A stretch of DNA of 64,000 nucleotides, from positions 42,126 to 106,125 of the forward strand of contig JAUIER010000002.1 of the NCBI GenBank assembly GCA_030429765.1, in the 5' to 3' direction. The DNA comes from a bacterium. GTDB lineage: Bacteria; Omnitrophota; Gorgyraeia; Zapsychrales; Zapsychraceae. The notes below the pieces were generated by a model. That model made no database searches. It was not told where the DNA came from and worked only from the letters and a program-made list of their open reading frames with translations. The stretch's first letter is position 1, and the number at the start of each line of letters is the position of its first letter. Shown here in pieces: positions 9,101-61,107 of this stretch. A program made the position numbers and the translations under genes.

Positions 9101-10484
9101 GAACACTCTTGGAATAAGACTGCTGACGGATACGCAGATGTTCGACGATGTCGTACCCGATCCGGTTAATGTCTCCGGCACCGAGGGTAATCACCAGGTC
9201 ACCGGGGGCTACAATTTTTAATACGTGGTTAAGGATGTTCTCTTTTCTTATATACAAAACCGGTTTGTCAGTAAACTTTTGAATATCCTGAACAAATCGC
9301 TGAGCATTGATTTGATCAATCGGATTCTCACTCGCCGCATACACATCCGAGACGATTAAATGGTCGACATCGATCATACTGTCCATAAAATCCCGCCATA
9401 AGGCCTTGAGCCGTGTGTAGCGATGCGGTTGAAACAGTGCGATCACCCGGCCTTCTGAACATTCCTTGGCCGTCTGCAGGGTTGTGGCAATCTCCGTCGG
9501 ATGATGGGCATAGTCGTCGATCACCCGAATATTGTCGACACACCCAAGCTCCTCAAACCGCCGCTGCACCCCCGTATAATTCTGCAGACTTTGACGGATG
9601 ACGTCCATGTCGACACCGATCGTATACCCCAGACAAATACAGGCCAGCGCATTGGCAATATTGTGCCGTCCGGGAACATTCAACAGGATCTCACCCTGAC
9701 GCTGCCCGTCGATCAGACATTCAAATCTCGACTGGTTCCCTTCCTGACGGACATTGATAGCCATCACCAGATCATCGCTGGAGAAACCAAAGGTGACAAA
9801 ACGCCGACCTGATTGCCGGATTAAATCACACATCCGTTTGTCATCTCCAAACGCTATAATCAACCCGTCATCCGCGGTACGGCGAAAATACTTTCCATAA
9901 GCCTCCGCAATATTCTTCCAACTATGATAGTAATCAAGATGTTCAAGATCCATGTTGGTGATAACAGAATAGAACGGTGAAAAATACAGGAAAGATCCGT
10001 CACTCTCATCGACCTCGGCCACAAAATACTTGCCTTGTCCCAGCGCCGCATGTGAATGCTCACCATTGACAATCCCGCCGATGGCCGATGTCGGCTGCAG
10101 CCCCGCAAGGCTCATCATCTGGCCGATCATCGACGTGGTCGTGGTCTTGCCGTGCGCGCCGGCCACAGTAATGGCCTTGTGTTCACGCATAAGCTCCGAC
10201 AATACCTGCGCCCGTTTCAGGGTTGGAATCCGATGTTGTTCCGCCGCGGCAAGCTCACAGTTAGAACCTGAAATCGCCGACGAGTAAACGACGACATCGG
10301 CATTCATCACATTTGCCGCATCGTGTCCGATCACAATCCGAGCCCCTTTATTTCGCAATCGTCGCACCATCGGATTCTCTCTGACATCGGAGCCTCCGAC
10401 AGAATAGCCTTTATCCAGCAGCAACGATGCGATCGTTCCCATTCCAATGCCGCCAATTCCGATTAAGTGGTAGTGTTTAGTCAT
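9093..10484 (-). CDS. murC: UDP-N-acetylmuramate--L-alanine ligase
   Basis: HLIGIGGIGMGTIA..., GAHGKTTTTSM and the Mur ligase fold. ATG at 10484; the track's first M at 10490 is a TTG. Confidence 0.9.
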   Translation of the reverse strand: MTKHYHLIGIGGIGMGTIASLLLDKGYSVGGSDVRENPMVRRLRNKGARIVIGHDAANVMNADVVVYSSAISGSNCELAAAEQHRIPTLKRAQVLSELMREHKAITVAGAHGKTTTTSMIGQMMSLAGLQPTSAIGGIVNGEHSHAALGQGKYFVAEVDESDGSFLYFSPFYSVITNMDLEHLDYYHSWKNIAEAYGKYFRRTADDGLIIAFGDDKRMCDLIRQSGRRFVTFGFSSDDLVMAINVRQEGNQSRFECLIDGQRQGEILLNVPGRHNIANALACICLGYTIGVDMDVIRQSLQNYTGVQRRFEELGCVDNIRVIDDYAHHPTEIATTLQTAKECSEGRVIALFQPHRYTRLKALWRDFMDSMIDVDHLIVSDVYAASENPIDQINAQRFVQDIQKFTDKPVLYIRKENILNHVLKIVAPGDLVITLGAGDINRIGYDIVEHLRIRQQSYSKSVHE

Positions 10485-11250
10485 CTTCAAGAAATTTCAC
10501 CCAGGCCTTGTTCAGGCGTTCAATATTTTTATACCGGACATAAATCGAATCCAACGCCCACTCAAATGGTTTGCCGTCCTTGAGCTTTCGGCAAAAACGG
10601 ACAAATTTGTTTGTACCGTGTTCATTGATCAAAAACTTTACCGCACTGGCCGACTCGGCATAAAATAATTCAATCCCCTTCTTGCTCATGCCACGGTGGG
10701 GACGCATCAATGTCAACTGCTCAAGCGGTATAAACTTATCCGCCTTGATGGCTTCACGGACGAGATCATGCGATCCGAAACGACGGGCGCGCTCGACGTA
10801 CATAGCCACCCCTTCCTCAAACCATAATGGAACATCGGCGTTGTATCCGACAAATTCCCGAAAAATAATATGGCCCAATTCGTGCGGTAACGTCGAATCA
10901 AAAAATCCATGCGCGGTTGGAAATGTGCGAATCGTCCGCTCCGTCGGTGACGCCGATCCATGTGACCATCTGGCCTGCCGTCCCGCCGTGACGTAATCTT
11001 CGGAGCTGTCGTAGATATAAATCTTGACCCTGTTCTTGTAAGCCCAGGACTTGGTCCGTCGAAAACCCAGATCCTTGATGATACTGTCGTAATACTCTTC
11101 AGTGGCCTTCTCAACGGCATCAACAAAATCCTTGGGAGCTTCATTGTAGAAAATCTGGACATGACGGCCGCTGCGCTCCGTCCAGTCCGCAGCCAACGCG
11201 CTTGTTCCCAACATCGCGGTCGTGATGATACCCCCTATCAAAGTTGTCAC
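10477..11250 (-). CDS. Secreted zinc metallopeptidase, gluzincin / Peptidase_MA-like (HExxH...E)
   Basis: Signal peptide MTTLIGGIITTAMLGTSALA. HELGH is followed after 18 residues by WFEEG, the gluzincin spacing. Inserted between murG and murC, with 4-8 nt overlaps on both sides. Confidence 0.65.
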   Translation of the reverse strand: MTTLIGGIITTAMLGTSALAADWTERSGRHVQIFYNEAPKDFVDAVEKATEEYYDSIIKDLGFRRTKSWAYKNRVKIYIYDSSEDYVTAGRQARWSHGSASPTERTIRTFPTAHGFFDSTLPHELGHIIFREFVGYNADVPLWFEEGVAMYVERARRFGSHDLVREAIKADKFIPLEQLTLMRPHRGMSKKGIELFYAESASAVKFLINEHGTNKFVRFCRKLKDGKPFEWALDSIYVRYKNIERLNKAWVKFLEDD

Positions 11251-27702: not shown

Positions 27703-30488
<2,786 letters not shown>

Positions 30489-30621
30489 AAACGTAAAAAT
30501 ACTTTGTAGTTAACAATAAAAGACGGAGTAGTTTATCATCAATCGGTGAGCGAGTCAAACAGAACCCGGCTGGATTTGAACTGTAAGCTATTGTGATTAA
30601 ATACCTTGTATCGGGAGGGAC

Positions 30622-31056
30622 TTAGACTTCCTTGATACCAAAGCCAATTTCCGCTTCCGCGACCAGCTTGTCGCCGACGAAACATTGACCTTTCAGAAAA
30701 CCGACCTTGGCCATTAATTTGACCGTCGTAACCTCAATCCGCAGCTGATCACCCGGGACCACCGGTGCGATAAATTTAGATTGGACCTTGGCCAGATAGT
30801 AGATCAAATCCTTACCCTGCATATTTTTACTATAGTAAAAATAAATGCAACCGGCCTGGGCCATCGCCTCAATAATCAGCACGCCCGGCATAACCTTCTC
30901 ACCGGGAAAATGACCGTCAAAAAATTCTTCATTGATACTGACATTCTTGATGGCGGTCAATTTTTCATTGGGAACTAATTCTGTCACGCGGTCGATCAAC
31001 AAAAAAGGATAACGATGGGGAATAATTTTCTGAATCTCACGTATATCAAGTTGCAT
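30622..31056 (-). CDS. fabZ: 3-hydroxyacyl-ACP dehydratase
   Basis: Hot-dog fold, ...LLIDRV...HFPG.P.MPGVLIIEAMAQ. Confidence 0.9.
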   Translation of the reverse strand: MQLDIREIQKIIPHRYPFLLIDRVTELVPNEKLTAIKNVSINEEFFDGHFPGEKVMPGVLIIEAMAQAGCIYFYYSKNMQGKDLIYYLAKVQSKFIAPVVPGDQLRIEVTTVKLMAKVGFLKGQCFVGDKLVAEAEIGFGIKEV

Positions 31057-31099: not shown

Positions 31100-31690
31100 T
31101 TAACGCGATTGCAGTTGCTTTTCAACATAACGCGCCAGCAGATCCACCTCAAGATTAACCGACTGTCCGATCTCAAGAATACCCAGATTGGTGTCACGTT
31201 CGGTGACGGGAATCAAATAAACCGAAAATTCTGTTTCACTGACTTCGCCCACCGTCAGACTGACTCCGTTTATCGTGATCGAACCTTTGGGCACCACAAA
31301 ACGCGCAATCGAATCTGATAGACTGAACTTAAGCTTGAGGTAGTTCTCCTCAGTGACTCGGTCGGTTAACGTCGCCACACAATCCACATGCCCCGAAACC
31401 AGATGACCGTCTATCCGGTCAGACAATTGCAGCGCACGCTCCAAATTAACCCGCTGTCCGACGCTGTATCGTCCCAGGACGGTCTTATCGAGTGTTTCCA
31501 ACATGACATCGAAATACAGCACATCTTCCTGCTGACGACAAACTGTCAGACACGCCCCGTCGACACAAATACTACTACCGAGCTTCGCTCCCTCGGCTAT
31601 TTTCTCCGATCGGATCGCCAACTCAACGAGATTTTTCTTCTGGACGACCTGATGAATGGTCCCGAGATCTTCAACGATTCCTGTAAACAT
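31100..31690 (-). CDS. ribE: Riboflavin synthase (alpha chain)
   Basis: MFTGIVE... with duplicated lumazine-binding halves. The ATG at 31690 was verified and overlaps ribD by 20 nt. Confidence 0.88.
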   Translation of the reverse strand: MFTGIVEDLGTIHQVVQKKNLVELAIRSEKIAEGAKLGSSICVDGACLTVCRQQEDVLYFDVMLETLDKTVLGRYSVGQRVNLERALQLSDRIDGHLVSGHVDCVATLTDRVTEENYLKLKFSLSDSIARFVVPKGSITINGVSLTVGEVSETEFSVYLIPVTERDTNLGILEIGQSVNLEVDLLARYVEKQLQSR

Positions 31691-32348
31691 TTGCCAGTAC
31701 CAAAATGTCCCCACCTAACGTGCGAACGGATTTAATGTCTAAATTTGTCAGACGATCCATACTCAAGACACGATTTCCCTGTACCGAACTCAAGGCCGTC
31801 TGATCCCCCATCACTTTCGGGGCCATGTAAATATGCATTTGATCGATGAGATTCCATCGCAGCGCCGAACCTGTAATCGTCGCGCCCCCCTCAATCAGCA
31901 GGCGCCGAACTCCCATCTCATAGAGCGCATTCATCATATATTTCAAATCGACCCGGCGATTCTTTTGAGGACACAGAATCACGGAGACACCCATCGCCGT
32001 AAGTCTATTTCGACGGCGCTCCGATGAGCGACGTGTCGTTGCCACAACCACGTGTTCTGTTTGTGCCCGTTTTAACACATTACTGCTGAAGGGCAAGGTC
32101 AAGGTGGAATCAACCACGATACGGATTAACGATTTGTTCTTGACGCCTGTTAGTCGCGGATTATCCCGAAGTGCGGTCCGTGCACCTACCAGGATCGCGT
32201 CAAATTCGTCCCGCTGTCGGCGGGCATAATCCCTGGCCTTTTGCGAAGTGATCCATTTGGATTTCCCGTTGGATGTGGCTGTCTTGCCGTCGAGGGTTTG
32301 CGCAATCTTGGCAACAACCTTCGGCCGGTGATATTTATCGGATGGCAT
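31671..32348 (-). CDS. ribD: 5-amino-6-(5-phosphoribosylamino)uracil reductase. Only the RibD C-terminal domain is present; there is no deaminase domain.
   Basis: 225 aa. ...LDGKTATSNGKSKWITS...ILVGARTALRDNPRLT... aligns to the reductase half of RibD. No CMP/dCMP-deaminase HAE...PC..C motif. Confidence 0.85.
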   Translation of the reverse strand: MPSDKYHRPKVVAKIAQTLDGKTATSNGKSKWITSQKARDYARRQRDEFDAILVGARTALRDNPRLTGVKNKSLIRIVVDSTLTLPFSSNVLKRAQTEHVVVATTRRSSERRRNRLTAMGVSVILCPQKNRRVDLKYMMNALYEMGVRRLLIEGGATITGSALRWNLIDQMHIYMAPKVMGDQTALSSVQGNRVLSMDRLTNLDIKSVRTLGGDILVLANVYRNR

Positions 32349-33165
32349 CGGAACGCTCCTTTAATTGCTCAACGACTTCATAAGGAACTGTCATCTTGCC
32401 TAAATAGGTATTCTTCTTGGCCTCACCATGATCGTCCGATCCACCCGTCGCTATCAAATTGTATTTGGCCGCCAGCTTGGCGTAATACGCGATCGTCTTG
32501 GTGCCGCAATTCGGATAGTGCGCCTCCAACCCTTCCAGGCCGGCTTCGGCGAACTGCGGAATCAGTTCATCCACCAACGTAAACATCGGATGGGCCAACA
32601 CAGGTACTCCACCGCAGGATCGTATCAATTCAATCCCTTCAAACGGGGACAGCTTGGCCTTGGGTACAAAGGCCGGTTGCCCGTCAGCGAGATATCGATC
32701 AAAGGCCTGACGAATATTTCGGACATGTCCATACTTCACCAAGATCGTGGCCAGATGCGGCCGGCCAATCGCGTCACCCTCTGTAAGTTCCGCCACCTCT
32801 TCAAAGGTGATGGGCCCGACTCCTAACTCGGCCAGTTTATCAATCATATCACGCATCCGTTCAACACGCGAGGCCTGAATCGTTTGCAGCTTTCTTAAAA
32901 AATGCTGGTTGGAAATATCAAGGAAATAGCCCAGGATGTGCACATCTTTATTATTGATTTGAGTGGAAAGTTCAATACCCGGAATGACCTCTACGTCCAG
33001 CTCCTGACCGGCATGAATGGCTGGTTCAACACCGTCGACGATGTCATGATCAGTGATGGCCACGCACTGAATACCATGCGCATGCGCCTTTTCAATGACT
33101 TCCCGCGGCGTTGAGGTGCTGTCTGAAAAATGAGTGTGGATGTGAAGATCGGCTATTTTAGCCAT
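32335..33165 (-). CDS. PHP-domain metal-dependent phosphoesterase (TrpH/YciV-like) embedded in the riboflavin operon
   Basis: MAKIADLHIHTHFSDS...VAITDHD... carries the PHP His/Asp motifs. The ATG at 33165 overlaps the nusB stop by 8 nt, and the 3' end overlaps the ribD start by 14 nt. Confidence 0.8.
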   Translation of the reverse strand: MAKIADLHIHTHFSDSTSTPREVIEKAHAHGIQCVAITDHDIVDGVEPAIHAGQELDVEVIPGIELSTQINNKDVHILGYFLDISNQHFLRKLQTIQASRVERMRDMIDKLAELGVGPITFEEVAELTEGDAIGRPHLATILVKYGHVRNIRQAFDRYLADGQPAFVPKAKLSPFEGIELIRSCGGVPVLAHPMFTLVDELIPQFAEAGLEGLEAHYPNCGTKTIAYYAKLAAKYNLIATGGSDDHGEAKKNTYLGKMTVPYEVVEQLKERSDAIR

Positions 33166-33589
33166 CACTGGAAATATTCGGGAGTACTTCTGTCTTGTGG
33201 ATTTTGTCGAGAATGCCGTTCACGAACTTACTGGACTCGGTGTCGCCGAACTTTTTGGCGAGCTCCACCGCCTCGTTGATGGACACCTTCGGTGGAATAT
33301 CTTCGGCATAGACCAGCTCATAAACACCCATCCGCAAGATGTTCCGATCGATAATCGCCATTCGCTTTAACTGCCAATTGGTGGCGTAATTCGAGATCTT
33401 GCCGTCAATTTCTTCTAGATTCTGATCGACACCCTCAATAATTCGCCCGGCAAACATCCGGACCGTCTTGTCGTATTTCTCTTTCTGCGTCCAGTAATAA
33501 TCATTGGCGGATTCTATAGATCGCCGCGTGATTTCGGCCTGATATAAAATTTTTAGAGCCTCTTCTCTGGCTTTCGTTCTCTTACGCAT
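33158..33589 (-). CDS. nusB: Transcription antitermination factor NusB
   Basis: 143-aa all-helical NusB fold. Classic ribH-nusB pairing. Confidence 0.9.
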   Translation of the reverse strand: MRKRTKAREEALKILYQAEITRRSIESANDYYWTQKEKYDKTVRMFAGRIIEGVDQNLEEIDGKISNYATNWQLKRMAIIDRNILRMGVYELVYAEDIPPKVSINEAVELAKKFGDTESSKFVNGILDKIHKTEVLPNISSDG

Positions 33590-33624: not shown

Positions 33625-34092
33625 TTATAGTTTCGACAAAACATTTGCCATTTCAACCGCTACCTGGGCGGCGTCACGTCCCTTGTTGTTGCCTTCGGCC
33701 TCGGCCCGATCCTGAGCCAATTTGACTGTGGGCGTGGCCAATATTTCAAACACAACCGGCTTACCTGTATCGAGCGATGCCTTCATGATCCCCGCGGCGG
33801 CGTTGTCGGCCACTAACCGGTAGTGATCCGTTTCTCCAAGTATAACAGCTCCCAGGCAGATTACCGCATCGACGGTCTTTTTTTTTGCCAATTTCTGGGC
33901 CACGACCGGAATCTCAAAGGCCCCGGGGACAGAGACAACAGTCAGGTCCTTCTTCAGGACCCCTAATCGTCCTAATTCATCCAGGCAGGCGTCCCGCAAT
34001 CGACCGGTTATGCCCTCGTTGAAACGGGCGACAATAACGGCAATTTTAAGACCTTTTCCTGTTTTCGACTGACCTGAGATGATTTTTGTCAT
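33625..34092 (-). CDS. ribH: 6,7-dimethyl-8-ribityllumazine synthase
   Basis: 155 aa, ...IAVIVARFNE...GAFEIP.... Confidence 0.92.
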   Translation of the reverse strand: MTKIISGQSKTGKGLKIAVIVARFNEGITGRLRDACLDELGRLGVLKKDLTVVSVPGAFEIPVVAQKLAKKKTVDAVICLGAVILGETDHYRLVADNAAAGIMKASLDTGKPVVFEILATPTVKLAQDRAEAEGNNKGRDAAQVAVEMANVLSKL

Positions 34093-34165: not shown

Positions 34166-35311
34166 TTATACTTTCGACGTTTGAGATTTACCCAACGGCA
34201 CACGCTCAATCATCGATAGGCCGAATCCCTCAAGCCCGACAATCTTCCGCGGGTTATTGGTCAGCAAACGGATATCCTTGACCCCTAAATCGACCAAGAT
34301 CTGCGCGCCAAGTCCGTAGTGACGAAGATCCGGCAATAACGGTAATTGGTCGGCATCCTGACTGGCGGCCTTGGCCTTCTGAACCTGCGCCACCTGGGCC
34401 TCGATATCAAATGTCCGTTGCGGCGTTCGCATGTAGATAATGACCCCTGAGCCATTTTCCTGAACGGCCTTGAACGCGGCCTGCAGTGCCCCGCTGCTCT
34501 TTAGCCCCTGCGCCTGGAATACGTCATTCAGCAGGTTCTCGGCATGGACCCGAACCAACGTCGGCTCTTTGTCAGATACTTCACCCAAAACCAGGGCAAT
34601 GTGCTCCAACTCGTCAACTTCCGAAAAATATTTAATGACTTTGAATTCACCGTACTGGGTGGAAAGCGTGCTTTCGTCGCCGCGCTCGACGAGCTTCTGG
34701 TACTTGGTGAGATGCTCGATAAGACTGTCGATCGTGCAGATTTTGATCCCGTGCCGCTTGGAAAACTCGATCAGGTCATTCGTGCGGGCCATCGTTCCGT
34801 CTTCGTTCATGATCTCGCAGATCACACCGGCTGGATAAAGTCCGGCCAGGCGTGTCAAGTCGACCGACGCCTCTGTATGTCCGGCCCGGACCAGAACCCC
34901 GCCCTTTTGCGCGCGAAGCGGGAACAAATGTCCAGGTGTGATAATATCCGTCGGTTTGGCCTCAGGATCAATCAGCAGTTTGACGGTGTAGGAGCGGTCC
35001 GCCGCCGAGATACCCGTGGTGATCCCCTTGGCTGCGTCGACCGAGATCGCCCAACCTGTGTCACACTTTTGATGCTTGCGGCTGTGGTCAATCTTCATCG
35101 GGTGCAAATCCAGTTCGTCCAAACGATCGGCCTCCATTGGCACACATACCAACCCGCGTGCTTCCTTGGCCATAAAGTTAATCAGATCCGGTGTGACAAA
35201 TTCGGCGGCACACAGCAAATCGCCTTCATTTTCACGCCCTTCGTCATCCATCACAATGATGAGTTTACCCTGCTTTAAATCCTCAAGAACTTCTTCGATC
35301 GTATTGAACAT
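34166..35311 (-). CDS. ribBA: 3,4-dihydroxy-2-butanone-4-phosphate synthase (RibB) fused to a degenerate GTP cyclohydrolase II-like domain
   Basis: The N-terminal half has RENEGDL, GHTEA and CEI (RibB). The C-terminal half aligns to RibA (LLTNNPRKIVGLEGFGLSMIERVPL). However the three Zn-ligand cysteines are replaced (HSECLTGD to HAENLLND; CDCG to GLKSSG), and the EGRGIG loop is not conserved. Confidence 0.85.
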   Translation of the reverse strand: MFNTIEEVLEDLKQGKLIIVMDDEGRENEGDLLCAAEFVTPDLINFMAKEARGLVCVPMEADRLDELDLHPMKIDHSRKHQKCDTGWAISVDAAKGITTGISAADRSYTVKLLIDPEAKPTDIITPGHLFPLRAQKGGVLVRAGHTEASVDLTRLAGLYPAGVICEIMNEDGTMARTNDLIEFSKRHGIKICTIDSLIEHLTKYQKLVERGDESTLSTQYGEFKVIKYFSEVDELEHIALVLGEVSDKEPTLVRVHAENLLNDVFQAQGLKSSGALQAAFKAVQENGSGVIIYMRTPQRTFDIEAQVAQVQKAKAASQDADQLPLLPDLRHYGLGAQILVDLGVKDIRLLTNNPRKIVGLEGFGLSMIERVPLGKSQTSKV

Positions 35312-35438
35312 TTTGACTTCGCCTCTTTTGATTAATTGGTGTTGAATGAAATCGTCAGGATTTGCCCCAAAAATTTCTATATATAGTAATATTTATAACG
35401 GTTTAGAAGAAATGGTACTATATTCGAAATGATTAGGC

Positions 35439-35467
35439 TTGTCAAGAATTTTGTCTTGGCCTATAAT
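35439..35467 (+). promoter_or_regulatory. Sigma-70-type promoter TTGTCA, 17 nt spacer, TATAAT, giving a near-leaderless transcript for the plus-strand membrane cassette
   Basis: TTGTCA at 35439-44 and TATAAT at 35462-67. The ATG at 35479 is only about 5 nt after the predicted TSS and has no RBS. Confidence 0.5.
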
Positions 35468-35478
35468 GAAACCAACTT

Positions 35479-36225
35479 ATGACACGAACCGCACCCCCTC
35501 AAAAGACTGAAAACCACTGCCAATACTATGTTTACGTCGCTGTTGGCGCATTGATTTTTGTCATAAGCTCCATTTTTGTTGTCCATTTTCAAGGCTTGAG
35601 TCCCCTCGACTTTGGACGATACCTGATGCATGCCTCCGACGATACCCATCACAATATCATCTTCTACCGGAAACTCCCACAGATTTCACTGAACGAACTG
35701 ATTTACCTGGGTTGGTTCCTGGGGGCTGCTGTGATTTTCGCAGGCTCGCGTCTATTGGCCGGCGTATCGTCGACTAAGACTCGAAGTTTGTCGATCTACC
35801 GCTCACTCGGATTGAGCTTATTGGGGATATTCCTCGTCATTCTCACTGGACAGCTCAGCGGACTGTCCAAGAAATGGAGCTATTACCTCGACAATTACAC
35901 GGTTAAATCAGAAGCCGAACGACTAAAGCTCACCTCCATCCGTCAGTCGTTGGAGATGGCGGAATTTTGCAAGCAGCTCCTGCCGGGCCCACATAAAGCC
36001 GATTTTGTCACCGATATGGACATGGACCATGGACCGAATATGCTATTGCATCGTAGCCTGGCTTTTCATCTGTATCCCATCGATATCCGTGATGTTCGCC
36101 AGCAGCGATCCGACAGTTGGATCGCGTTCAACAAGGCAAATGCCCGTGCACACATCCCGGAAGGATTCGAGCTGCTGGGCGCCCTGAATGACGAAAATGT
36201 AATAGCCGTCAGGATGAAACCATGA
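35479..36225 (+). CDS. 3-TM membrane protein with conserved C-terminal soluble domain (paralog A of a duplicated module)
   Basis: Paralogous to 38124..38837. Shared motifs include ...F(V/I)(T/S)DMD(M/I)..P(N/Y)ML(L/M)HR..A..LYPIDIR.V.... ATGA overlap with the next gene. Confidence 0.55.
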   Translation: MTRTAPPQKTENHCQYYVYVAVGALIFVISSIFVVHFQGLSPLDFGRYLMHASDDTHHNIIFYRKLPQISLNELIYLGWFLGAAVIFAGSRLLAGVSSTKTRSLSIYRSLGLSLLGIFLVILTGQLSGLSKKWSYYLDNYTVKSEAERLKLTSIRQSLEMAEFCKQLLPGPHKADFVTDMDMDHGPNMLLHRSLAFHLYPIDIRDVRQQRSDSWIAFNKANARAHIPEGFELLGALNDENVIAVRMKP

Positions 36226-37598
36226 CATTTGCAACCGCATGTGCATCTCTGCTATTGCCCATCACGCTTGGTGCCGTGTTGATACGCATCACAACTCGAA
36301 ACGATCCAATCCCCAAGCCATTGGCCGTGGCTTTAGGTTATGGACTTGGGACAGGCATCTTGACCCACTGGATGGTGATCGCCAATTTTACCGGAATGCC
36401 CCTTTCAGCCCCGGTAATAAACATCCCTCTCGGCATTGCGCTCGTCATCGGAATTGTTAGCCTGCTGCGCCAGTCACGCTCGGTCCGCCGGCTTCAACCA
36501 AATCGCGAACCGCCGGATATGATATCCATCGTGTGCGGATTGGTCATCCTCTTTGTCACCCATTTCATCTTATGGCGGGCCCTGAATTTTCCGATCTTCG
36601 CGTGGGACACTTTTTCTACAATGGGCCTCAAAGGCAAATCCATTTACTACGATCAAACCATCCGAAATCTGGCCTTTATCCCAAAGTTTGATTACCCAAT
36701 TCATATTCCGCTCTTAACGGCATGGATATCCTTCTGCATGGGCGAATGGAATAATACACTCAAAATCTTGTTCCCCTTGCCATGTTTCTTCTATCTGGTC
36801 ATTCAATACTACTTCCTGCGGGAATTCGCGGCCCGTCGCTGGGCGTTACTGAGCGTGGTGTTCCTGCTGTCCTGTAATTTCCTCATATACCATGCGACAA
36901 TTACCTATCGGGATATTCATATGATGTACTTTAATTGCTCAACGCTGCTGCTGATTGCATGGTGGTATCGGCGTCAATCCGGCGCGTGGTTGTTGTTATC
37001 TGCCGTCTTTGCCGGGCTGACCTCATTTATCAAGCTCGAAGGTTTTGGCTACATGGTTCTATACAACCTCCTGATGACCGTCTTGATTTGGTACAGGAAT
37101 GCTGAATCGGCCCGGGCCAAAATAATGAAGAATCTTGAATTTGCGCTTATCAGCGGCGGCATATACGCCATCTATCTGATCTATCGCATCTTTCACATCC
37201 TGCCCTATGCGGCCGGTCGCGACGAAGTACATGCCGAACACTTTTACATCAACAAGATTAATCTGGCGACGGGAGCCGAATTGTTGGAACGAATGGGAGT
37301 GGTTTTGATGCGCTACATCGAAAACTTTTTTATGAGCGGCAACTGGAACGTAATTCCGATCCTTTTTGTTTTAAGTCTATGGCAGATTTTTTTCAGCCGA
37401 AACCGCCATGTTGGCGTGGTGATGTTATTGTTTCTGGGATTGTTTTTTGGAATGTACTTTGTCACATTTTCGGCGACACAACATTACGTCTGGGTGGCCA
37501 AACAACATCATGTGCTATCCCGCTCAATATTGCATGTATTTCCCATTTTGGTCACCCTAACCATCCTGTTAAACGCGGATGATCACTCTAAAACCTAA
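36222..37598 (+). CDS. Polytopic (about 11-13 TM) membrane protein, GT-C-like glycosyltransferase candidate (paralog A)
   Basis: Paralogous to 38842..40239: ALGYG(L/M)GTGILT, a W-D/aromatic-rich loop F(A/T)WD(T/A)(F/Y)S..G(L/F)K(G/A)K, YH(A/S)TI(T/S)YRDI, and FF(M/S)SGNW(N/S)VI. Family assignment is an inference. Confidence 0.55.
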   Translation: MTFATACASLLLPITLGAVLIRITTRNDPIPKPLAVALGYGLGTGILTHWMVIANFTGMPLSAPVINIPLGIALVIGIVSLLRQSRSVRRLQPNREPPDMISIVCGLVILFVTHFILWRALNFPIFAWDTFSTMGLKGKSIYYDQTIRNLAFIPKFDYPIHIPLLTAWISFCMGEWNNTLKILFPLPCFFYLVIQYYFLREFAARRWALLSVVFLLSCNFLIYHATITYRDIHMMYFNCSTLLLIAWWYRRQSGAWLLLSAVFAGLTSFIKLEGFGYMVLYNLLMTVLIWYRNAESARAKIMKNLEFALISGGIYAIYLIYRIFHILPYAAGRDEVHAEHFYINKINLATGAELLERMGVVLMRYIENFFMSGNWNVIPILFVLSLWQIFFSRNRHVGVVMLLFLGLFFGMYFVTFSATQHYVWVAKQHHVLSRSILHVFPILVTLTILLNADDHSKT

Positions 37599-61034: not shown

Positions 61035-61107
61035 TGCGCCTAGGTGGACTCGAACCACCCCACCAGCCTTAGGAGGGCCGAGCTCTATCCATCTGAGCTA
61101 TAGGCGC
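61035..61107 (-). tRNA. tRNA-Arg (anticodon CCT)
   Basis: Manually folded: acceptor GCGCCTA/TAGGCGC, D-arm GCTC..GAGC, anticodon stem CGGCC/GGCTG with loop CTCCTAA, T-arm GGTGG-TTCGAGT-CCACC, discriminator A. No encoded CCA. Confidence 0.85.

Follow-up and report, generated by a model that had tools for sequence, protein, structure and literature searches.

The PHP-domain gene embedded in the riboflavin operon of this Omnitrophota bacterium encodes a protein that we judge, on reasonably good odds from its sequence and modeled fold, to be a 5'-phosphate-dependent nucleotide or RNA phosphoesterase of the RNase AM/pAp-phosphatase type, possibly acting with NusB on pre-rRNA. The stable genomic partner of this gene is nusB and not the flavin genes, and the gene is probably not the missing phosphatase of riboflavin synthesis, which acts on 5-amino-6-ribitylamino-uracil 5'-phosphate (ARPP). 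The window, meaning the whole 64-kb stretch of DNA that was analyzed, carries the operon on its minus strand in the order ribB(A)-ribH-nusB-PHP-ribD-ribE. Direct reading of the sequence confirmed this order and the 8-nt and 14-nt overlaps at the two ends of the PHP gene, as given in the preliminary description. Two of the gene names used there apply in part, as 'ribD' is the reductase half only and the GTP cyclohydrolase II half of 'ribBA' is degenerate. The features of the region are the following:

35445..35417, minus strand: promoter-like site, sigma-70-like, TTGACA-17-TATAGT, 11 of 12 matches, about 100 nt upstream of ribB
35311..34166, minus strand: ribB with a degenerate GTP cyclohydrolase II-like domain (RibBX-like); Pfam DHBP_synthase and GTP_cyclohydro2
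34092..33625, minus strand: ribH, lumazine synthase; PF00885 and TIGR00114
33589..33158, minus strand: nusB, transcription antitermination factor; TIGR01951, 149.5 bits against a cut-off of 88
33168, minus strand: GTG, alternative start of the PHP gene
33165..32335, minus strand: PHP-domain phosphoesterase gene, ATG at 33165, stop at 32335, 276 aa; PF02811, E = 1e-13
33158..33165, minus strand: nusB/PHP overlap of 8 nt; nusB stop TAA at 33160..33158, PHP ATG at 33165..33163
32348..31671, minus strand: ribD, reductase domain only, 225 aa; RibD_C alone, TIGR00227 with 175 bits
32335..32348, minus strand: PHP/ribD overlap of 14 nt; ribD ATG at 32348, last base of the PHP stop at 32335
31690..31100 (start approximate), minus strand: ribE, riboflavin synthase; NF006767 with 227 bits over residues 9-200 of the ORF
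31056..30622, minus strand: fabZ (Pfam)
30488..30219, minus strand: acylphosphatase (Pfam)
30313..28196, minus strand: ligA (Pfam)

The ORF of ribE opens with a GTG at 31714, and the profile matches begin at the ATG at 31690. In the window, nusB and the PHP gene are separate ORFs in different frames and show no fusion architecture. The genes fabZ, acylphosphatase and ligA (28196..31056) lie at the downstream end of a conserved mixed-function block that includes the rib operon, which is co-linear in most Omnitrophota loci and additionally carries fabF and fabG in close relatives. Given the presence of fabZ, acylphosphatase and ligA in this block, gene order in Omnitrophota is no clean functional signal. 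The GC content of the PHP gene (0.52-0.53) is the same as that of its neighbors, so there is no sign of a recent insertion, and this possibility was rejected. Flavin control of the whole operon by an FMN riboswitch was also rejected, as no such element (RFN element) was found at the Rfam gathering threshold across the 64 kb, or at E <= 1 within the leader (35200-35600).

The PHP protein is a full-length COG0613 enzyme of the TrpH/YciV/Cv1693 type, with PF02811 as its sole Pfam domain and no HAD domain. Its best NCBIfam match was the 3',5'-nucleoside bisphosphate phosphatase family (NF041577), with a score of 190 bits where the equivalog cut-off is 400, followed by RNase Rnm/AM (NF047791), with 169.9 bits against an equivalog cut-off of 375. 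Since both scores fall below their cut-offs, the protein is assignable neither as a pAp phosphatase nor as an RNase AM. The sequence matches in the PDB were 3E0F/3O0F, 9ETK (Vibrio cholerae RNase AM), 2YB1 (Cv1693) and 7UG9 (E. coli RNase AM), and the identity to E. coli Rnm was 30% over 279 columns. The AF2 model (pLDDT 95.7) contains the helical insertion domain (helices 87-159), and all of its structural matches were PHP proteins, with TM scores of 0.86-0.89 to 3E0F, 9ETK and 2YB1. Together with the COG0613 matches, these values favor the TrpH/YciV-type nuclease that the preliminary description had kept as its fallback. In a neighbor-joining tree, the PHP proteins follow taxonomy, and the rib-linked group does not sit on a long branch.

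Among the known systems, Cv1693 of Chromobacterium violaceum, a pAp phosphatase, shares the PHP barrel and the helical insertion domain (TM 0.87), all metal ligands, and the residues that bind the 5'-phosphate and the base of AMP (Arg triad, His and Phe). The window protein differs from it in its low identity (~30%), in its score on the Cv1693 family profile, in a shorter loop after H192 that lacks the Gly-Arg motif, and in its nusB/rib context. RNase AM (Rnm/YciV/TrpH) of E. coli and V. cholerae is also close in fold (TM 0.86, rmsd 2.0 to 9ETK), and its role in RNA metabolism is consistent with the NusB fusion and RNase Y neighborhoods described below; here the differences are the profile score (170 versus 375 bits) and a Met or Phe in place of R201. 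This enzyme family was once misnamed 'TrpH' on account of its gene neighbors, and E. coli rnm adjoins the trp operon and yciO, not nusB. The PHP-type histidinol phosphate phosphatase HisK (2YXO) belongs to the same superfamily and is a phosphomonoesterase that uses a trinuclear metal site on a small metabolite. However, it is distant from the window protein (TM only 0.34; 32 bits against a cut-off of 117 for NF004981) and has no helical insertion domain bearing the Arg triad.

The window protein has the full set of nine metal ligands (H8, H10, D15, H40, E65, H76, H192, D244 and H246), which align with H13, H15, D20, H45, E72, H83, H198, D255 and H257 of RNase AM. Across 85 sequences they are invariant or nearly so, with exceptions at H76, D244 and H246 in one or two linked sequences. 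The pocket for a second (5') phosphate and for purine stacking is also complete, comprising R100, R103, R135, H137 and F155. The residue roles were taken from the RNase AM study, in which R107, R110, R141 and F161, the counterparts of R100, R103, R135 and F155, make up the buried 5'-phosphate pocket and the stacking residue (PMC9410882). None of these five residues varies among the 45 rib-linked proteins (the window protein and those of the 44 loci), the 9 fused proteins or the 4 crystallized references. The 25 unlinked sequences have the same pocket, save for one in which R135 is replaced by Lys, a change also seen in one loosely linked sequence. No position within the metal site or the pocket separates rib-linked from unlinked PHP proteins. 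[quoted passage not shown] This short, Arg-less loop is common to the Omnitrophota, Brocadiales and Firmicutes orthologues, including unlinked ones.

The genomic context was surveyed in 80 species-level PHP loci with flanks of +/-10 kb. The nusB-PHP pair lies inside a rib operon in 44 species-level Omnitrophota loci, an order confirmed by independent gene calls, so that the recurrence in related genomes proposed as a check in the preliminary description was indeed found. In most of these loci, both PHP junctions are overlaps or gaps of <=11 nt, the PHP/ribD overlap is commonly 4 nt, and the PHP gene is coupled to ribD as tightly as to nusB. Every rib-linked PHP gene has nusB immediately upstream, except in one locus cut at a contig end (L058), and none of the 80 loci has PHP beside rib genes with nusB demonstrably absent. 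The link to nusB also persists in Brocadiales loci that lack ribD, ribE and ribBA nearby, and for these two reasons we identify nusB as the stable partner. The proximity of nusB and PHP recurs in three phyla; in a Nitrospirota locus (L044), the order is nusB, one membrane-protein gene and PHP, with ribH adjoining nusB. The ribH gene is present in every nusB-PHP locus, fusion loci included. The ribH-nusB pair is an old linkage, as the adjacency is found in Brocadiales, in the Nitrospirota locus and in E. coli, where the order is ribD-ribE-nusB-thiL-pgpA. Outside these settings, nusB and rib genes are both missing from the vicinity of PHP in about 25 of the 80 orthologue loci. In five Firmicutes loci, RNase Y-ymdB is found 0.6-3 kb upstream of the PHP orthologue, and in one Chloroflexia locus (L079) the orthologue directly follows rny. 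An apparent NusB-PHP fusion in one Omnitrophota locus (L002) was an artefact of an N run in nusB; the genes are separate, with the stop at 2954 and the PHP start at 2964.

A true fusion was found in anammox Brocadiales, where nine loci have the order ribH, NusB~PHP and ftsY, with NusB and PHP in a single ORF and ribD, ribE and ribBA absent nearby. Two examples are the ORFs at 9530..10813 (427 aa; L046) and 9521..10828 (435 aa; L042), and Pfam places NusB and PHP in one Brocadiales protein. Among the best 120 matches listed (50-99% identity), which include Brocadia, Jettenia, Kuenenia and Scalindua, all 120 have both domains. More divergent fusions keep the same ribH/fusion/ftsY context, which extends the overall span of identity to 35-99%, and the architecture is confined to Brocadiales-like lineages. 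The PHP half of these fusions shares 42-46% identity with the window protein as well as its invariant residues, and it occurs in the same ribH-nusB-PHP order. In contrast to the two genes with an 8-nt overlap in the window, the Brocadiales version is one polypeptide with a flexible linker of ~16-25 residues, followed by ftsY. In the AF2 model of the Brocadia fusion (pTM 0.64), the linker (136-151) is disordered (pLDDT < 50), and no fixed NusB-PHP interface is predicted. The fusion proteins are annotated only as 'transcription antitermination factor NusB', and our literature search found no paper describing a link between NusB and a PHP domain.

The preliminary description had presented the PHP protein as a strong candidate non-HAD ARPP phosphatase, a claim that does not withstand these results, with the operon argument confounded by nusB, the pocket unchanged and the conserved block of mixed function. 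In its general form, this explanation holds that the protein is the ARPP phosphatase of Omnitrophota, dedicated or moonlighting, feeding RibH, and we regard it as unlikely. It draws on the position of the gene within the rib operon, overlapped at both ends, in 44 species-level loci, and on the constant presence of ribH, the consumer of the phosphatase product. COG0613 enzymes also include a true phosphomonoesterase activity, on the 3'-phosphate of pAp. Known HAD-family ARPP phosphatases are promiscuous and usually unlinked to rib genes. They have only the hypothesized phosphomonoester hydrolysis in common with the window protein, as their fold is unrelated and they use an Asp nucleophile instead of a trinuclear metal centre; neither the HAD fold nor the DxD motif was encountered in the window protein. 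Those of E. coli (YigB/YbjI) and B. subtilis (YcsE/YitU/YwtE) are mentioned in PMC7062661 and PMC4993169. Pfam scans of 19 mid-size ORFs of the window, five of which had no Pfam match at all, revealed no HAD domain, and the literature search returned no paper assigning this step in Omnitrophota and nothing relevant on PHP proteins with ARPP or on Omnitrophota with riboflavin. However, ARPP carries a single phosphate and would leave the invariant 5'-phosphate pocket (Arg triad and His) and the stacking Phe unused, and this pocket is the same in unlinked orthologues. The embedding itself is confounded because nusB, which does not encode a riboflavin enzyme, is embedded to the same extent; the same logic would make NusB one, and the E. 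coli rib cluster holds nusB, thiL and pgpA. Furthermore, rib linkage of PHP with nusB demonstrably absent was not encountered, Brocadiales fuse the pair away from ribD, ribE and ribBA, equally similar Firmicutes and Chloroflexi orthologues adjoin RNase Y and not rib genes, and the operon has no FMN riboswitch. Pocket conservation and synteny argue indirectly against a dedicated ARPP role. Co-expression with flavin synthesis would also be explained if the PHP protein removed FAD caps from RNA (deFADding) or hydrolyzed a flavin nucleotide, which we consider very improbable. E. coli RNase AM is reported to perform deFADding via the same metal site, which the window protein keeps, but FAD is unable to bind in the buried 5'-phosphate mode (PMC9410882); the rib-linked proteins are also no different from unlinked ones, and PHP linkage follows nusB, not the flavin genes.

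In the favored reading, a nucleotide or RNA phosphoesterase, the trinuclear metal centre would hydrolyze a 3'-phosphoester of a nucleotide substrate whose 5'-phosphate sits in the Arg-triad pocket and whose base is stacked on the Phe. Because of this pocket, the likely substrates would be pAp, 5'-phosphorylated di- or oligoribonucleotides, or the 5' extensions of pre-rRNA. We infer that the role is one of RNA or nucleotide housekeeping, plausibly coupled to NusB, for example by trimming pre-rRNA 5' ends in the manner of RNase AM close to the antitermination complex on boxA. Maturation of 5S, 16S and 23S rRNA at their 5' ends is a function of RNase AM (PMC7261194), and NusB anchors boxA within the rrn antitermination complex (PMC10250234). 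Points that weigh against this reading are the two profile scores below their cut-offs, the missing loop Arg, the coupling to ribD in Omnitrophota, which is as tight as that to nusB, the constant presence of ribH, and the fusion model with its disordered linker and no predicted interface. The position in the rib operon would be explained by the constant pairing of PHP with nusB and the ancient tie of nusB to ribH; in Omnitrophota, ribD-ribE follow the ribB(A)-ribH-nusB-PHP unit. A more specific version, which we put forward tentatively, is that PHP is a hitherto unrecognized working partner of NusB, brought to the boxA-bound complex by translational coupling in Omnitrophota and by a covalent tether in anammox bacteria. 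At this complex it would either trim the 5'-phosphorylated leaders of pre-rRNA during transcription or act as an accessory subunit, and its rib position would be incidental to the ribH-nusB linkage. As an accessory subunit it would resemble SuhB of the E. coli complex, a member of the phosphatase fold family to which the pAp phosphatase CysQ also belongs. It is rather doubtful, by comparison, that PHP acts as a pAp phosphatase or nanoRNase in general housekeeping, functionally independent of both neighbors, its synteny being inherited and the Brocadiales fusion a neutral read-through. The mixed functions of the conserved block (fabZ, acylphosphatase and ligA, with fabF and fabG in close relatives), the disordered linker without a predicted interface and the ~25 of 80 loci away from nusB and rib genes are in keeping with such an enzyme. 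However, the fusion is kept across all sampled Brocadiales genera and their divergent relatives (35-99% identity), the nusB-PHP proximity extends over three phyla, and a neutral fusion of an essential transcription factor is unlikely to last that long.

These results call for caution in riboflavin biology, where a place in the operon is not sufficient grounds for assigning the ARPP phosphatase step. For RNA biology, the recurrent nusB-PHP coupling and the stable anammox NusB-PHP fusion are a useful lead, as they suggest that the rRNA antitermination machinery is physically linked to a 5'-3' processing enzyme of the RNase AM type.

Apart from the PHP gene, the sub-lineage of the window has lost the zinc site of GTP cyclohydrolase II along with the deaminase domain of RibD. 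This coordinated loss raises the question of where the pyrimidine intermediate comes from, given that the late pathway is otherwise intact; tblastn found no stand-alone ribA, deaminase or second PHP gene in the 64-kb window. The ribB(A) product matched DHBP_synthase with 271 bits, while its ribA domain scored 114.6 bits on TIGR00505 against a cut-off of 205.85. In its GTP cyclohydrolase II half, the positions of E. coli C54, C65 and C67 are occupied by N, L and S, so that the three zinc cysteines are lost, and the EGRGIGL motif is gone. In most other Omnitrophota, RibD has 340-395 aa and the HAE/PCxxC motifs, and it is reductase-only, as in the window, in four loci (L001, L018, L086 and L087).

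The PHP-domain gene lies within a run of six genes arranged head to tail, all on the minus strand:

35311..34166, minus strand: ribB fused to a GTP-cyclohydrolase-II-like domain, ribB(A)
34092..33625, minus strand: ribH
33589..33158, minus strand: nusB, stop codon TAA at 33160..33158
33165..32335, minus strand: PHP-domain gene, 276 aa, ATG at 33165..33163, stop ending at 32335
32348..31671, minus strand: ribD, ATG at 32348
About 31690..31100, minus strand: ribE

Direct reading of the sequence gives overlaps of 8 nt between nusB and the PHP gene and of 14 nt between the PHP gene and ribD, so the coordinates and overlaps in the preliminary description are correct. In GC content, the PHP gene does not differ from its neighbors. 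A good minus-strand match to a sigma-70-like site occurs about 100 nt upstream of ribB, and Rfam searches of the window and the operon leader found no FMN riboswitch upstream of the operon. Back-to-back sigma-70-like promoters near consensus (35417-35445, minus; 35439-35467, plus; 11/12 matches each) occupy the riboswitch-free 170-nt gap between ribB and a divergent membrane-protein gene. Two overlapping membrane-protein open reading frames (ORFs) run divergently from the operon (35479-36225 and 36222-37598, plus); neither has a Pfam match, and both have homologous positions in the close relatives L086 and L087. At gathering score, Rfam matches nothing in the 64-kb window other than a single tRNA gene (61035-61107, minus).

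Both the database entry identical to the PHP protein and its closest relatives come from Omnitrophota MAGs. The only Pfam domain of the protein is PF02811. The top two NCBIfam matches, 3',5'-nucleoside bisphosphate phosphatase (190 bits) and RNase Rnm (170 bits), are full-length yet fall under their equivalog cutoffs (400 and 375 bits, respectively); identity to Escherichia coli Rnm is 30%. Solved structures matched by sequence are four COG0613 proteins: Bad1165 (PDB 3E0F/3O0F), Vibrio cholerae RNase AM (9ETK), Cv1693 (2YB1), and E. coli RNase AM (7UG9). A confident AlphaFold model, built with 25 orthologues as input (pLDDT, 95.7; pTM, 0.91), superposes on these four with TM scores of 0.86 to 0.89, whereas PHP-type histidinol phosphatase reaches only 0.34. 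In RNase AM, the metals are held by H13, D20, H45, E72, H83, H198, D255, and H257, while R107, R110, and R141 line a buried pocket of positive charge that takes the substrate 5'-phosphate, and F161 is a stacking residue (PMC9410882). The window protein has a complete set of metal ligands (H8, H10, D15, H40, E65, H76, H192, D244, and H246) and the pocket positions R100, R103, R135, and F155. It differs in the loop after H192, which is shorter and has no counterpart of R201, the arginine touching the active-site phosphate in RNase AM. By sequence and model, the protein is a COG0613 enzyme with a predicted trinuclear site and 5'-phosphate pocket, both intact, and it adds a new, uncharacterized branch member to a known family.

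A scan in which each GTDB species was represented by a single genome yielded 80 orthologue loci, on which the rib, nusB, fabZ, acyP, and ligA proteins of the window were placed by tblastn:

Omnitrophota, 44 loci, PHP 39-66% identical: ribBA-ribH-nusB-PHP-ribD-ribE
Brocadiales (Brocadia, Jettenia, Scalindua), 9 loci: ribH-nusB-PHP, with ribD, ribE, and ribBA absent within 10 kb
Loosely linked, 2 loci: Nitrospirota L044, and L063
Other phyla, 25 loci, 41-47% identical: no nusB or rib genes nearby

The synteny on which the preliminary description rested thus recurs in 44 Omnitrophota loci. Both flanks are visible in 39 of them, the other five being cut by contig ends; L034 and L047 are the only loci in which ribD stands apart from PHP, and the nusB/PHP and PHP/ribD junctions usually overlap or leave a gap of ≤11 nt. 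Independent gene calls with Pfam labels give the same order. In L044, one membrane-protein gene separates nusB from PHP, and in L063, ribH-nusB lies 4 kb from PHP. The protein between nusB and PHP in L044 (5043-6521, 492 aa) is unrelated to the membrane ORFs of the window and has no NCBIfam match. None of the 80 loci has PHP beside rib genes with nusB demonstrably absent.

In the Brocadiales, nusB runs into PHP in a single reading frame, with no stop codon between the two. The ORF listing gives single fused ORFs in "Candidatus Brocadia sapporoensis" (L046, 9530..10813, 427 aa) and "Candidatus Scalindua" (L042, 9521..10828, 435 aa), both with ribH upstream and ftsY downstream. The fusion occurs throughout the anammox Brocadiales and in some more divergent relatives, always placed between ribH and ftsY, at the following loci:

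NusB-PHP fusions, ORFs of 414-475 aa: L042, L043, L046, L053-L055, L069, L072, and L073; L081-L083

Pfam places NusB at residues 6-130 and PHP from residue 159. The best 120 matches listed in a database search were all two-domain proteins (50-99% identity) from Brocadia, Jettenia, Kuenenia, Scalindua, and related genera, labeled simply "NusB" in the databases. An exhaustive search of cluster representatives recovered about eight fused ones, down to 35% identity, and the ribH/fusion/ftsY context is also found in two divergent fusions. The AlphaFold model (pTM, 0.64) has two well-folded domains and a disordered linker at residues 136-151 (about 16 residues), which looks like a tether rather than part of a rigid composite. 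What looked like a fusion in Omnitrophota L002 proved to be an artifact. The partnership of nusB and PHP is conserved, up to covalent fusion.

Adjacent ribH and nusB are an old arrangement with a wide distribution: in E. coli, the order is nrdR-ribD-ribE(lumazine synthase)-nusB-thiL-pgpA, and L044 shows the usual ribD-ribE-ribBA-ribH-nusB. The Omnitrophota order is permuted, with ribD-ribE after ribBA-ribH-nusB-PHP. This arrangement is most simply explained if PHP moves together with nusB, with the rib genes around the pair. Past ribE, the Omnitrophota block usually runs on into fabZ, acylphosphatase, and ligA (window 28196-31056); the conserved order is thus not confined to one pathway, and in a block of such mixed function gene order is a weak functional signal. 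Across the phylum, synteny past ribE also reaches xerD, and fabF-fabG is inserted into the block in L086 and L087. The ligA ORF as called is long and runs into acyP (30488..30219), so its start at 30313 is probably too far upstream. Outside the Omnitrophota, ligA lies 0.3 to 4 kb downstream of PHP in L048, L049, and L063 (Aerophobetes, Clostridia, and an unclassified bacterium), echoing the Omnitrophota proximity.

Orthologues outside the rib/nusB context have other neighbors. In five Firmicutes loci (L037, L060, L064, L070, and L071), RNase Y (TIGR03319, 766 bits) and YmdB are encoded 0.6 to 3 kb upstream of PHP, and in Chloroflexia L079 (8448-10879) PHP starts 15 nt after the end of rny. This rny/ymdB context is a second, independent RNA-decay neighborhood. 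E. coli rnm adjoins yciO (putative RNA-binding) and the trp operon, hence its name trpH. All three contexts point to RNA metabolism.

To compare rib-linked with other orthologues, the window protein, those of the 80 loci, and four crystal references (85 sequences in all) were aligned. R100, R103, R135, H137, and F155 are invariant in all linked (45/45), fused (9/9), and reference (4/4) sequences; the sole exceptions are two R135-to-Lys replacements, one among the 25 unlinked proteins and one in either of the 2 loosely linked ones. Conservation is just as strong at the nine metal ligands, except in one or two linked sequences differing at H76, D244, or H246. The short loop without Arg is common to linked and unlinked proteins, the 25 unlinked orthologues are on par with distant Omnitrophota ones in similarity to the window protein, and the neighbor-joining tree tracks taxonomy without a long branch to the rib-linked group. 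Because pocket and metal residues, loop, and tree do not set that group apart, the sequences carry no sign of a changed substrate in the Omnitrophota enzyme.

The preliminary description had taken co-translation with rib genes as grounds for a phosphatase of 5-amino-6-ribitylamino-uracil 5'-phosphate (ARPP), but the same logic would make NusB a riboflavin enzyme. The second-phosphate pocket argues for a bisphosphorylated nucleotide or 5'-phosphorylated RNA as substrate, whereas ARPP is singly phosphorylated. The ARPP idea, despite the recurring synteny, has lost most of its support and is now improbable. A housekeeping enzyme with purely historical synteny is a better alternative, albeit a fairly unlikely one. 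Relatives show pAp 3'-phosphatase and 5'-3' exo- and diribonuclease activity (PMC11528712), mature the 5' ends of 5S, 16S, and 23S rRNA (PMC7261194), and remove FAD caps (PMC9410882); a flavin-cap role for the window enzyme is nevertheless highly improbable.

On balance, we favor a nucleotide/RNA phosphoesterase partnered with nusB as the probable reading. Such an enzyme would hydrolyze pAp and/or trim 5'-monophosphorylated RNA. At the antitermination complex, NusB keeps hold of boxA in the nascent pre-rRNA (PMC10250234), and coupling to NusB would bring the PHP enzyme to pre-rRNA leaders; a specific role at the rRNA complex is a more tentative suggestion, less likely than not. We found no paper in which PHP proteins are connected with ARPP or PHP domains with NusB, and the nusB-PHP coupling is a new lead, modest yet testable.

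The riboflavin genes themselves differ in one sub-lineage. The GTP cyclohydrolase II half of RibB(A) (window 34166-34750) has lost the EGRGIGL motif and the three zinc cysteines (E. coli C54, C65, and C67 are N, L, and S), as have L001, L018, L086, and L087; the motifs are kept in 36 other Omnitrophota loci. In the window (31671-32348) and the same four loci, RibD is a reductase domain alone, the whole deaminase domain being lost, and wherever ribD is uncut in loci other than these, RibD is full-length. Neither a stand-alone ribA nor a replacement deaminase occurs within the 64-kb window. Since both losses coincide in exactly these five related genomes, the first two steps of the pathway were lost from the operon together.
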